The notes beneath the pieces were generated by a model. The model searched no databases and was not told the DNA's origin. It was given only the letters and a program-made list of their open reading frames with translations. The position numbers were made by a program, and so were the translations under genes. From the IMG/VR virus record IMGVR_UViG_2537561991_000020: a stretch of 16,195 nt of DNA; one strand, written 5' to 3'. The DNA is from a virus (lineage: Duplodnaviria > Heunggongvirae > Uroviricota > Caudoviricetes). Shown in pieces: positions 5,505 through 15,865 of the stretch; the stretch's first letter is position 1; each line of letters opens with the position of its first letter.

Positions 5505-5562
5505 AAAAACGGCGGCAGAGCAGTCACGGAGTAAAACTGATACCGCCAAACGTCACCAGAAA
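5505..5562 (-). ncRNA. dicF: DicF small regulatory RNA (ftsZ-targeting antisense sRNA)
   Basis: The minus strand reads tttctggtgacgtttggcggtatcagttttactccgtgactgctctgccgcc followed by a U-run, essentially the DicF sequence as I recall it. It lies between ydfC and dicB as in the K-12 dicB operon. Confidence 0.75.
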
Positions 5563-8810: not shown

Positions 8811-9218
8811 ATGGCAAAAGTATTTACACAGGAAGAGCGGGAAAAAATTAAAGGACAGGTGGTGGAACTCGTGCGCCAGAGCGGTCGTGAGACGTTACGG
8901 CAACTGGAAGCTAAAACAGGTGCGACAAGATATCTGATGAGCGTTCTTGCCAGAGAGCTGGTTGCCAGTGGTGATGTATATCACTCTGGCTATGGGGTGT
9001 TCCCGTCAGAACGGGCTCGTAAGGACTGGCAAAACGCCCGCAAAAAACTCTCGAGGGCAAAGGTGAAGAAACCTGTTGTGGTTGATCCGGGCCTTATCTG
9101 GACATTACCCGACGGAGAAATACGCCGCTACGACAGGCGTATGAACATAATCTGTCGCGAGTGCCGGAAGAGCGAAGTTATGCAGCGTGTATTGGCGTTC
9201 TATCAGGGATATGCCTAG
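8811..9218 (+). CDS. Hypothetical protein (135 aa), possible HTH-containing
   Basis: ORF with a good ribosome-binding site (caggagga, then ATG at 8811). No confident homology recalled. Confidence 0.55.
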   Translation: MAKVFTQEEREKIKGQVVELVRQSGRETLRQLEAKTGATRYLMSVLARELVASGDVYHSGYGVFPSERARKDWQNARKKLSRAKVKKPVVVDPGLIWTLPDGEIRRYDRRMNIICRECRKSEVMQRVLAFYQGYA

Positions 9219-9264
9219 AATTGTCACAGGTAATGAAATTAAAGAGTATTGGTTCGGATATGAA

Positions 9265-9294
9265 TTGACATTTTCGCGGCACAGAGCTAAAAAT
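9265..9294 (+). promoter_or_regulatory. Candidate sigma70 promoter in the AT-rich leader upstream of the SIR2-like gene
   Basis: TTGACA at 9265-9270, 17-nt spacer, taaaaat at 9288-9294. It would give a roughly 290-nt leader to the ATG at 9587. Confidence 0.3.
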
Positions 9295-9586
9295 AGCCTA
9301 CTTGTTGGTTTTGTGTGAAAAGCAGACATTTTGAGGCTCAGGATTTGTTATCAAATAAGACCAATACTTATCTATATTAATACACATTAAATACTGTGCA
9401 ATACATTATTGCATTTTATTAGATAAGCGATATTTAGGGAAAAGAAAAGTCATAGAAAACAGGCCGCTATTTGTTGTTGGATTTTATAGGCTATATCTAG
9501 ATTATCTTGCCACTGCGGTCTCTGTTTACCTAACAGCTTGGGCTTCTTTGCATGCAAGTTTGTAATAACAAGAGTAATCAAACGGA

Positions 9587-10618
9587 ATGTCTATTAATCC
9601 TAAACTTAAGCGTATCGCGCGACGCTATCCAGCGTTATTCCAATATGAGTCCCCCTATATGGCAAGAAAATTAATAATATTCGGCAACGGTCTCGGTATG
9701 GCTTTAGATCCTGCTCACTTCTCCTTAGACAGAGCGTTGGAAGAAATTTGGCATCGCCCCAATTTTTTAAAAGATATCCACAAGCAACTTATCGAGCGTT
9801 GTCTTCAGCGGCAAGGTCCACCAGAAGGAGAACATGAGTTGGATACCCTTCACCAGGCTGTCACATATTGTAAAGCTCTTGCTCAAATTGGAGAGGGGAA
9901 CGTGCATTGGCTTACTGAAGATGGACTAAACTTCCCCAAAATTACCGCCACTTATATTCACAAAGTTGCAACCAGGTTGCATAATTACGATAAAGGTTTG
10001 CCACAAAGATTCGAAAATGCGCTTGTGGAGTTTGTAAAGAACACACACTCACATATCGCGACATTAAACTATGACAAATTATTATACAATTCATTCATAG
10101 ATAATGATATATTCAACGGGTATGATGGGGTTTTAGTTGATGGGATGCTAAGCCACGGATTTTCCTCTGCAGCGCTCGAACGGAAATACAATCGTAGGTT
10201 TGGTTATTATTTGCACTTGCATGGTTCACCACTATTTATTAATCAGCATGAAAATGTTTTAAAACTTTCACGCTCACAACTTACTCTTGACATAGATGAA
10301 CCTAGTGAGCATATAGTGTTAACTCATATAAAAAGAAAACCGTCAGTTATAGCAGCATCTAATGTTCTTTCTACGTACTGGGATTATTTGCAGTTTGCAT
10401 TATTTGAATCAGAAGAAATAATATTGTTTGGTTACTCTGGTCTCGATATTCACCTTAACCTGCTTATTCGACCTTACCTAACCTCTAAGCCTTTAAGAGT
10501 AATTGAGTGGAGCGGTGCTGGTGAACAAAACGCTCGTGAGATATATTGGAAAAACCAGTTGAGACGGGAAGTTACTGTAATTAGGTTGGATAACATCACT
10601 GATTTTATTGATTGGTAG
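9587..10618 (+). CDS. Standalone SIR2-like (SIR2_2-type) putative NAD+-hydrolase; candidate anti-phage defence cargo gene
   Basis: 343-aa ORF in a visibly AT-rich block. Four ordered motifs parallel Thoeris ThsA-type SIR2 domains: IIFGNGLGMALD (Gly-rich loop), TLNYDKLL (conserved Asn), YYLHLHGSP (catalytic His), IILFGYSGLD. Start codon is uncertain because the ribosome-binding site at 9587 is weak. Confidence 0.6.
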   Translation: MSINPKLKRIARRYPALFQYESPYMARKLIIFGNGLGMALDPAHFSLDRALEEIWHRPNFLKDIHKQLIERCLQRQGPPEGEHELDTLHQAVTYCKALAQIGEGNVHWLTEDGLNFPKITATYIHKVATRLHNYDKGLPQRFENALVEFVKNTHSHIATLNYDKLLYNSFIDNDIFNGYDGVLVDGMLSHGFSSAALERKYNRRFGYYLHLHGSPLFINQHENVLKLSRSQLTLDIDEPSEHIVLTHIKRKPSVIAASNVLSTYWDYLQFALFESEEIILFGYSGLDIHLNLLIRPYLTSKPLRVIEWSGAGEQNAREIYWKNQLRREVTVIRLDNITDFIDW

Positions 10619-10688
10619 CGCAATGCGAAGTTAAAGAGGCAGCCTCATATTTATCAGAGCTGGTGTACGTCCAATACAGGAGGTTATC

Positions 10689-10778
10689 GTGCTGGTTCTC
10701 AAATGCGCGCTGGCTATTGCGGCTGTAGTGGCAATTTATTGTCTTGCTATTGTTCTTATGGATCGCCTTTCTGATTGA
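10689..10778 (+). CDS. Putative 29-aa hydrophobic membrane peptide
   Basis: GTG at 10689 preceded by a consensus AGGAGG (10678-10683) with 5-nt spacing. Product VLVLKCALAIAAVVAIYCLAIVLMDRLSD is one predicted transmembrane helix; stop TGA at 10776-10778. Not in the ORF track because it is under 60 aa. Confidence 0.35.
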   Translation: MLVLKCALAIAAVVAIYCLAIVLMDRLSD

Positions 10779-10989
10779 TTTTATATTGGCGAGGTGACGG
10801 GAGTTAAGTAGAATTGCTGCGGGTGCTTGAGGCTGTCTGCCTCGGGCATGCCACCGTAAGGCAGACAGAGAAAAGCCCCAGTTAACATTACGCGTCCTGC
10901 AAGACGCTTAACATTAATCTGAGGCCCAATCTATGCTTCACAAACGTAGGTTAGCCTCTTACGCGCCGAAAGGCAAGGAGAAGCAGGCT

Positions 10990-11145
10990 ATGAAGCAGCA
11001 AAAGGCGATGTTAATCGCCCTGATCGTCATCTGTTTAACCGTCATAGTGACGGCACTGGTAACGAGGAAAGACCTCTGCGAGGTACGAATCCGAACCGGC
11101 CAGACGGAGGTCGCTGTCTTCACAGCTTACGAACCTGAGGAGTAA
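10990..11145 (+). CDS. hokD: Hok-family type I toxin HokD/RelF (51 aa)
   Basis: MKQQKAMLIALIVICLTVIVTALVTRKDLCEVRIRTGQTEVAVFTAYEPEE matches K-12 HokD as I recall it. Internal ATG at 10990; stem-loops typical of hok mRNA leaders lie upstream (10833-10868, 10882-10916). Confidence 0.85.
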   Translation: MKQQKAMLIALIVICLTVIVTALVTRKDLCEVRIRTGQTEVAVFTAYEPEE

Positions 11146-11213: not shown

Positions 11214-11245
11214 AACCCGCTTCGGCGGGTTTTTGTTTTTATTTT
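11214..11245 (+). terminator. Rho-independent terminator after hokD
   Basis: Stem cccgc (11216-11220), loop ttcg, stem gcggg (11225-11229), followed by tttttgtttttatttt. Confidence 0.6.
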
Positions 11246-15615: not shown

Positions 15616-15691
15616 GGCCCTTTAGCTCAGTGGTGAGAGCGAGCGACTCATAATCGCCAGGTCGCTGGTTCAAATCCAGCAAGGGCCACCA
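15616..15691 (+). tRNA. tRNA with CAU anticodon (tRNA-Ile2, ileZ-like, or tRNA-Met)
   Basis: Cloverleaf folded by hand: acceptor ggccctt/aagggcc, anticodon loop ctCATaa, T-loop ggttcaaatcc, discriminator A and encoded CCA. Confidence 0.85.
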
Positions 15692-15698
15692 TCACATA

Positions 15699-15775
15699 CC
15701 GCTATTAGCTCATCAGGAAAGAGCGCCAGCCTTCGAAGCTGGCTGCGCGGGGTTCAAGTCCCCGATGGCGGTCCA
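15699..15775 (+). tRNA. tRNA-Arg (anticodon UCG), argN-like
   Basis: Acceptor ccgctat/atggcgg (one G-U pair), anticodon stem ccagc/gctgg with loop cTTCGaa (U33, anticodon UCG), T-arm cgggg-ttcaagt-ccccg, encoded CCA. Confidence 0.75.
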
Positions 15776-15788
15776 TTATCTGCATCAT

Positions 15789-15865
15789 GCGTTGTTAGCT
15801 CAGCCGGACAGAGCAATTGCCTTCTAAGCAATCGGTCACTGGTTCGAATCCAGTACAACGCGCCA
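15789..15865 (+). tRNA. tRNA-Arg (anticodon UCU), argO-like
   Basis: Acceptor gcgttgt/acaacgc, anticodon loop cTTCTaa (anticodon UCU), T-loop ggttcgaatcc, encoded CCA. Confidence 0.85.

Follow-up and report, generated by a model that had tools for sequence, protein, structure and literature searches.

A single-domain SIR2-like protein encoded alone in a variable slot of a lambda-like Escherichia coli prophage, and its possible role as a one-gene defence enzyme

The DNA considered here is a stretch of 16,195 nucleotides from the IMG/VR virus record IMGVR_UViG_2537561991_000020 (Caudoviricetes), hereafter the window. It covers the left part of a lambda-like prophage, whose site of integration is beside yccA, and contains a gene for a small SIR2-like protein, which has the slot between the replication module and hokD to itself. 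The protein has the fold and the intact active-site residues of a SIR2 enzyme in a single domain, and we lean towards the view that it is a self-contained, prophage-borne defence enzyme that degrades nicotinamide adenine dinucleotide (NAD), is activated by infection and aborts it. Of this, NAD-cleaving (NADase) activity, role in defence, trigger and regulation are what we infer. That the role is defence is suggested by three observations taken together: the fold is closest to those of defence SIR2 proteins, the gene is found again and again at sites for accessory genes in unrelated prophages, and defence genes are neighbours of some homologues.

When the open reading frame (ORF) is read from the ATG at position 9587, it encodes the 343 amino acids (aa) given in a preliminary description of this DNA and ends at 10618. 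That description had given the region as 9219-10618, of which only the part from 9587 onwards is coding, while 9219-9586 is non-coding upstream DNA with a G+C content (GC) of 34% and no ORF of note. The length of 343 aa stands in part. The RefSeq product (WP_000101550.1, 'SIR2 family protein') has 319 aa and starts at 9659, and most homologues, with lengths of mostly 319-323 aa, match this later start and lack the 24-codon N-terminal extension. The long form is nevertheless kept in 11 diverged homologues with 71-88% identity, which have the exact 24-codon extension with its LRYPxLF motif. Nucleotide similarity to a copy with 76% identity from a host with higher GC (L105) starts exactly at the ATG at 9587, the extension is predicted to form two short helices (predicted local distance difference test score, pLDDT, of 75-84), and its ratio of non-synonymous to synonymous substitution rates (dN/dS) is 0.34-0.50, as calculated from few sites. 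These comparisons suggest that the extension is probably translated in an enterobacterial subclade, for which the 343-aa form is plausible. Residues N161 and H212 in the numbering of the long form are N137 and H188 in that of the 319-aa form.

For the gene as a whole dN/dS is 0.08-0.17, and from this it follows that the protein is functional and under strong purifying selection. The four SIR2 motifs that had been read from the translation are all present and in the order given (Table 1). The region 9219-10618 is the AT-rich block that had been described: its GC is 37.8%, and that of the ORF 38.9% with 34% at third codon positions (GC3), compared with 48% for the whole window, 49-52% for the flanks and 48-55% for the neighbouring genes (GC3 45-60%).

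The assignment to SIR2 proteins comes from a profile match, a structure model and an alignment. The Pfam family SIR2_2 (PF13289) matches aa 156-302 with a score of 26.1 bits and an E value of 1e-5, which exceeds the curated cut-off of 24.5 bits by a small margin, and many homologues carry precomputed matches to the same family. An AlphaFold model calculated from 30 homologues (pLDDT 88.5; predicted template modelling score, pTM, 0.88) has a SIR2-type Rossmann fold in a single domain. The closest solved structures are the SIR2 subunits of SIR2-HerA (PDB 8w9l, 8j4u, 8sub and 8wld), with which the identity is only 14-18%, and the structure is clearly nearer to those of defence SIR2 proteins than to those of sirtuins. 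In an alignment of 118 full-length representatives with 29-66% identity, the residues T135, N137, Y138, D139, L187, H188, G189, G258, G261 and D263 (319-aa numbering) are invariant, and N137, D139 and H188 are at positions which, judged by their motifs, we take to be equivalent to those of the catalytic residues in ThsA or DSR2. The SIR2 fold that had been proposed is in this way borne out both by the profile, which scores above its cut-off, and by a confident structure prediction, with the catalytic Asn and His intact.

At the level of sequence the family is isolated, since neither the protein nor a 30-sequence family profile detects a SIR2 protein when all PDB chains are searched; a match to HmuT in this search (E value 0.27) was dismissed as spurious. 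It follows further that the link to known SIR2 proteins is one of fold, together with the marginal Pfam match. The protein has no match in NCBIfam, and in PHROGs there is only one meaningless match with an E value of 0.3. It contains two Cys only, so the zinc module of the classical sirtuins cannot be formed, and both marks of the classical sirtuin deacylases CobB and Sir2, the zinc-binding Cys4 module and a match to Pfam SIR2 (PF02146; none at E<=1), are absent. The SIR2_2 match, the model, the invariant residues and the missing zinc module together place the protein in the immune-type SIR2_2 ('SIRim') branch rather than in the deacylase branch. This division into two branches, with the known antiphage SIR2 proteins in the SIR2_2 or 'SIRim' branch, has been described previously (bioRxiv 10.1101/2024.09.18.613514).

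The gene is cargo in a variable slot. To its left are the replication genes and a DUF977 gene and to its right is hokD, which is where it had been placed before, and the earlier statement that Qin of K-12 has relB-relE at this position is correct: the order in MG1655 is relB-relE-hokD-rem-ydfU. Qin of MG1655 and the window, however, become homologous in DNA again only from 10976 onwards, a point within the mok frame and shortly before hokD starts. More generally, the homology of the left flank to other prophages stops between 9194 and 9330, and that of the right flank restarts at 10636-10802, depending on which prophage is compared. These limits mean that the SIR2-specific DNA is at most 9331-10635, that is, one gene with about 255 bp upstream of it, and the GC of this DNA is 38%. 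What had been called a low-GC cargo insert is accordingly a one-gene insert in the slot that holds relBE in Qin. Its upstream part presumably carries the gene's own regulatory signals, and there is no Rfam match in the insert. A promoter-like site, found by consensus scan, lies in the flank that is common to prophages with QueH and with DUF5677 in the slot, and might drive whichever cargo the slot contains.

Among 5426 complete E. coli genomes the gene is present in 46 (0.85%), and in all 46 it is found in the same slot with the same flanks. It is, in other words, rare and low in GC, not a core gene of uniform composition. The carrier lineages include the pathogenic O55:H7 and O111:H2 and porcine enterotoxigenic E. 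coli (ETEC), and the region 9219-11145 is 100% identical to that of the O111:H2 strain 12A, with the same annotation there. Two SIR2 alleles, with 100% and 89% protein identity, occur in the same slot of different prophages, and dN/dS between them is 0.165. In other prophages the slot is taken up by relBE, by QueH, which a methyltransferase accompanies in some cases, by a DUF5677 protein, by several small ORFs or, in Sakai Sp4, by an alpha/beta hydrolase encoded on the opposite strand. The relBE genes of Qin are thus one of several alternative cargos at the same position directly upstream of hokD, but they are an unrelated two-gene toxin-antitoxin pair, whereas the cargo here is a single enzyme gene.

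The protein stands alone not only in the window. When 1.84 billion representatives were searched exhaustively with a profile, with clusters defined at 50% identity, the result was a small family of 353 clusters, which is spread through the Proteobacteria and comes mostly from environmental and marine bacteria. Among the best 150 of the 353 representatives, nearly all are single-domain proteins of 310-370 aa that match from end to end. Close relatives share near-invariant blocks in the long helical insertion that separates the first strand from the second, GEHELDxLH and HWLTxxGxxFPxITAxYIHKVATxLHNY, and from its sequence this insertion is a candidate surface for the binding of a ligand or a partner. 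For a screen of partners, ORFs were called at 79 genome loci, and clustering covered four genes to the left and four to the right of the homologue; beside the close relatives (identity of at least about 45%) there is no recurring neighbour cluster in these loci. The annotation of the prophage has no ATPase, pAgo (prokaryotic Argonaute) or TIR gene. The preliminary description had noted the lack of a sensor or partner, and this holds: no SLOG, HerA, pAgo, STAND or large C-terminal domain is found in the protein or encoded nearby in the prophage.

Two groups of more distant or longer homologues have additional sequences. In an alphaproteobacterial branch with 32-44% identity, a gene for about 200 aa lies immediately upstream with a stop codon that overlaps or abuts the SIR2 start. 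The two-gene unit was seen in seven loci (L041, L049, L051, L054, L058, L069 and L071), where the SIR2 homologues have 38-44% identity, and the upstream protein belongs to an unannotated family of 16 clusters without Pfam or PADLOC match. Two Vibrio homologues with 67-68% identity, P0042 (506 aa) and P0044 (541 aa), have N-terminal extensions of 187-222 aa, which are 30% identical to each other and of which that of P0044 has no PADLOC match; these might represent a sensor or regulator fused to the enzyme, or else a gene call that extends too far. The alphaproteobacterial partner and the Vibrio extension were considered as hidden partners and rejected, as they are unrelated to each other by BLAST and have no homologue in the window. 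In four further loci (L056, L068, L080 and L081) the frame of the SIR2 homologue is broken into two ORFs, and these copies thus appear to be pseudogenes.

SIR2 NADases are established defence effectors, and every characterised SIR2 system of which we know is wired to a sensor or a partner, be it ThsB and SLOG, HerA, pAgo, STAND, the DSR C-terminus or KomAB. The present protein would work most like the NADase effectors of these systems, yet it is without the defining architecture of each of them. The SIR2 subunit of SIR2-HerA (Nezha) is its best structural match, although the family profile misses that subunit by sequence; this system has a gene for the HerA ATPase, whereas here none is adjacent or annotated in the prophage, and the neighbours are DUF977 and hok/sok. 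ThsA of Thoeris has a C-terminal SLOG or Macro domain and a nearby ThsB (TIR), in contrast to a single domain of 319 or 343 aa and no annotated TIR here. DSR1 and DSR2 have about 1000 aa or more, with C-terminal domains of more than 700 aa, as compared with 343 aa in all. SPARSA has an APAZ fusion and a short pAgo gene; the prophage has no pAgo gene, and the match of our protein to the Aga_SIR2 model is limited to the SIR2 core. Avs5 has a fusion to a STAND NTPase and KomC of Kongming has KomA and KomB as neighbours, while here there is a single SIR2 domain in a one-gene insert.

Two small stand-alone groups come closer in architecture. PDC-S21, an untested single-gene SIR2-like candidate in PADLOC, is of similar length (a model of 336 positions) and is the nearest catalogued idea, but the match to it is weak and partial and suggests remote homology rather than membership. 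DUF4917 (PF16263) consists of small stand-alone SIR2-like proteins, and many homologues carry precomputed matches to both DUF4917 and SIR2_2, but the window protein itself has no DUF4917 match at E<=1. A DUF4917 protein of Campylobacter jejuni, SliP, is described as a secreted deacetylase that acts on host histones, and its gene shares an operon with one for a type I restriction subunit (PMC10421069). Nothing seen for the window protein points to a histone-deacetylase role like that of SliP. In full-text literature searches, which left most subscription journals outside their coverage, no description was found of this protein or family, of PDC-S21 or of a stand-alone SIR2 defence. An E. coli functional screen mentions a Sir2 homologue, and nothing was found that ties it to the window protein; a domain-centric screen of 2026 explicitly excluded single-gene systems. 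The suggestion that the protein is an undescribed one fits these results, as it fits the solved structures missed by the profile and the weak, partial PADLOC matches.

Where homologues occur elsewhere, some contexts are those of mobile or accessory genes. The family has members on 21 IMG/VR viral contigs, some of them from unrelated prophages. In these unrelated prophages the homologues (41-53% identity) are found close to genes for portal and terminase, behind a tail fibre gene or ahead of HNH and terminase genes, and such positions are typical sites of accessory genes in phages. Direct neighbours of homologues include Dsr1 (L032), which is a separate gene for 1277 aa, a type I restriction R subunit (L036), an SNF2/PLD helicase (L043) and PDC-S49 (L029), and in Serratia plymuthica the homologue sits between a PDC-M36A-like gene and SoFic. 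Further neighbours match GajA-like, PARIS-like, dGTPase, type IV restriction and other candidate models, and integrases, resolvases and MvaT-type silencers are also found among them. A search of plasmids gave one copy, in Marinobacter, with 37% identity.

To see how a one-gene defence of this kind might operate, consider a lysogen that would make the SIR2 protein at a low level and in an inactive state. Infection by another phage would then switch the enzyme on. Since there is no separate sensor, the task of sensing the cue would fall to the SIR2 domain, probably by way of its large and highly conserved helical insertion or of a change in oligomeric state; ThsA, SIR2-HerA, Avs5, KomC and FAM118B are known to be activated when they oligomerise. 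The active enzyme would cleave NAD+ at the conserved site with N161 and H212, and the loss of NAD+ would stop both the infected cell and the incoming phage, as abortive infection or superinfection exclusion. A stronger version, which we find possible but doubtful, is that the SIR2 domain, with its roughly 320 aa, makes up a whole immune module and would be the smallest known NAD-depleting defence protein. The helical insertion would in that case bind a conserved cue, for example a small molecule derived from a nucleotide or a conserved factor of the phage or the host, and the binding would lead to oligomerisation and cleavage of NAD+. It would then be understandable that the gene hops on its own among prophages, islands and genera.

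Several results weigh against a one-gene defence. A protein with neither sensor domain nor partner offers no evident way in which its activity would be held off. The family is very conserved: in an alignment of 30 homologues, taken from metagenomes and diverse Proteobacteria, the columns are on average 66% identical, and receptors that bind fast-evolving phage proteins are usually less conserved. Matches to PADLOC models are weak and partial: Aga_SIR2 matches only the SIR2 core (24 bits, E value 3.8e-6, aa 144-306), the SIR2 model PDLC04093, for the subunit of SIR2-HerA, gives 20 bits (E value 6e-5), and PDC-S21 matches the N-terminal two thirds of the protein (23.5 and 23.2 bits, E value 8e-6, aa 26-233) over positions 18-213 of the 336 in the model, or about 60% of it; no ThsA, Dsr or PD-* model of PADLOC matches the protein. 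Nor do the DUF5677, alpha/beta hydrolase and QueH cargos of the slot have PADLOC matches. We had considered the slot as a defence hotspot, which is unsupported in that form: as the other cargos are without PADLOC match, it is a hotspot for accessory genes and not a proven one for defence. A defence-type gene lies within two genes of the homologue in about 12-15 of the 79 loci, which is a raw estimate without a background rate. Some homologues have ordinary neighbours. The Klebsiella copy, with 73% identity, lies between genes for a LysR regulator and luciferase-like proteins, and in Rhodobacteraceae the homologue is directly downstream of pncB in four loci (L053, L059, L060 and L080) and of the enolase gene in five (L066, L074, L075, L077 and L078). 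Finally, tblastn against 50,697 sequenced phage genomes gave no match, and a fold search of viral proteins in BFVD gave no relative at E<=1e-3.

The Rhodobacteraceae loci bear directly on one alternative, according to which the protein is a housekeeping-type NAD-metabolising enzyme that was acquired by chance and has no part in conflicts between phages and bacteria. The gene pncB encodes nicotinate phosphoribosyltransferase and is a gene of NAD salvage, a link that may or may not be meaningful, and the arrangement with pncB or enolase looks like vertically inherited synteny among distant homologues. The ordinary metabolic neighbours of the Klebsiella copy and the strong purifying selection point in the same direction. 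A housekeeping enzyme would, however, hardly be expected to have so patchy a spread, with 0.85% of E. coli genomes as carriers and 353 clusters in a set of 1.84 billion representatives, or so foreign a composition, to be captured repeatedly at accessory sites of unrelated prophages, to have integrases, resolvases, silencers of the MvaT type and defence genes as neighbours, or to be pseudogenised in several genomes, and we regard this account as very improbable. If, instead, the gene served the phage, it could be a toxin-like module for stabilisation or competition, or a counter-defence that acts on NAD-derived immune signals during lytic growth. It takes the relBE position and adjoins hok/sok, and it shares its strand with the early-right genes, which makes transcription in lytic growth possible. 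By analogy, QueH in the same slot of other prophages may suggest that genes of benefit to the phage are located there; QueH is seen as such a gene on account of queuosine-type DNA modification. But the insert has no candidate for an antitoxin, the family is widespread outside prophages and is found there also beside other defence genes, and its absence from the sequenced phage genomes and from BFVD is unexpected for a gene of the lytic cycle or of counter-defence. A benefit to the phage of this kind we consider unlikely.

The remaining alternatives keep the enzyme and change either its target or its wiring. By analogy with SliP, it might be an NAD-dependent protein deacylase or ADP-ribosyltransferase for lysogenic conversion or manipulation of a host. 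With two Cys there is no Cys4 module, PF02146 and DUF4917 fail to match at E<=1, and the structure is nearer to defence SIR2 proteins than to sirtuins; moreover, the family is mostly environmental and marine and not specific to pathogens, and SliP itself shares its operon with a restriction subunit. Such a role is hardly probable for this protein. An orphan defence effector, finally, would also consume NAD+ but would need a factor encoded elsewhere, such as a HerA-like ATPase or an enzyme that makes a signal, in the manner of KomC in Kongming and ThsA in Thoeris. The single gene moves alone between prophages, islands and genera, and it would then have to find its partner in trans in all of these hosts; the alphaproteobacterial partner and the Vibrio extension have no homologue in the window, and the protein has no ligand-binding domain of SLOG, Macro or SAVED type. 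The orphan effector, too, strikes us as improbable, and we come back to the self-contained enzyme as the reading to which we incline.

The coordinates of the features are collected in Table 1. The order of genes in the window is integrase, exonuclease, dicB, DicF RNA, ydfC/B, repressor, Cro, ydaT, replication gene, DUF977 gene and SIR2-like gene, followed by hok/sok, rem, DUF968, rusA, a DNA methyltransferase gene and three tRNA genes. The tRNA cluster is downstream of the methyltransferase gene, and its first tRNA (CAT) is tRNA-Ile in RefSeq.

Table 1. Positions of the SIR2-like gene, its motifs and other features in the window
Feature	Position	Strand	Basis or remark
DicF small RNA	5510-5561	-	
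DUF977 gene	8811-9218	+	conserved left border of the slot
Promoter-like site, TTGACA, 18 nt, AAAAAT	9265-9294	+	10 of 12 positions; consensus scan only
Upstream non-coding DNA, cargo-specific, AT-rich	9331-9586	.	from the end of flank homology
SIR2-like gene	9587-10618	+	343 aa from ATG at 9587
24-codon N-terminal extension, MSINPKLKRIARRYPALFQYESPY	9587-9658	+	most homologues without extension
FGNGLGM, Gly-rich NAD-binding loop after first beta strand	9680-9700 (aa 32-38)	+	sequence, model, alignment
LNYD	10064-10075 (aa 160-163)	+	catalytic-type Asn, and an Asp; both invariant across family
LHLHGS	10211-10228 (aa 209-214)	+	second His invariant across family
FGYSGLD	10427-10447 (aa 281-287)	+	G258, G261 and D263 invariant (319-aa numbering)
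hok/sok type I toxin-antitoxin locus	10821-11145	+	conserved right border of the slot
sok RNA (complete)	10821-10995	+	Rfam, 116 bits
mok	10933-11145	+	
hokD	10990-11145	+	
Three tRNA genes	15616-15865	+	ARAGORN; anticodons CAT, TCG, TCT

Between the SIR2 stop and sok, in a module of 165 bp at 10636-10800, there is an unannotated hydrophobic ORF of 29 aa (MLVLKCALAIAAVVAIYCLAIVLMDRLSD; plus strand, 10689-10778) with a GTG start and AGGAGG 5 nt upstream. The module is common to the prophage that carries DUF5677 and to the phages Tritos and mEp460, and is not found in Sp4 or in the QueH prophages. The ORF was considered as a partner of the SIR2-like protein and rejected, because this flank module is present also where DUF5677 takes the place of SIR2 and in the two phages; it may encode a small membrane peptide or belong to the upstream region of hok/sok. 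A second variable slot is located just downstream of hokD, at about 11215-11235, where related prophages at five loci (L092, L093, L095, L096 and L098) carry about 1.8 kb of extra DNA relative to the window. In Sakai Sp4 (L088, 301-714) the label of the DUF977 homologue is 'phage exclusion protein', and that of the mok/hok ORF is 'phage maintenance protein'. In strain 12A, outside the window (L001, 24351-25582), the gene for the large terminase is truncated by ISEc22, an IS66-family element, so that this copy of the prophage is probably defective. In Klebsiella pneumoniae (L083-L085) a gene for a P-loop kinase-like protein of 183 aa (9278-9829 in L083) begins 318 bp after the SIR2 homologue, with weak AAA_28, AAA_18 and shikimate/cytidylate-kinase matches.

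SIR2 effectors and the accessory slots of prophages are both already familiar to specialists. The present gene raises the question of what, in the absence of a separate sensor, keeps a potentially lethal NADase off and later activates it. If the protein does not act in defence, it would still represent an uncharacterised family of NAD-dependent enzymes that extends across the Proteobacteria and into pathogenic lineages of E. coli. If it does, the gene would provide a minimal system in which the activation of SIR2 can be studied, and it would add a system that annotation tools miss, given the weak matches in PADLOC 2.0 and the label 'SIR2 family protein' as the only one from PGAP. It would also mark the slot between DUF977 and hokD in lambdoid prophages as a place where further accessory functions may be sought.

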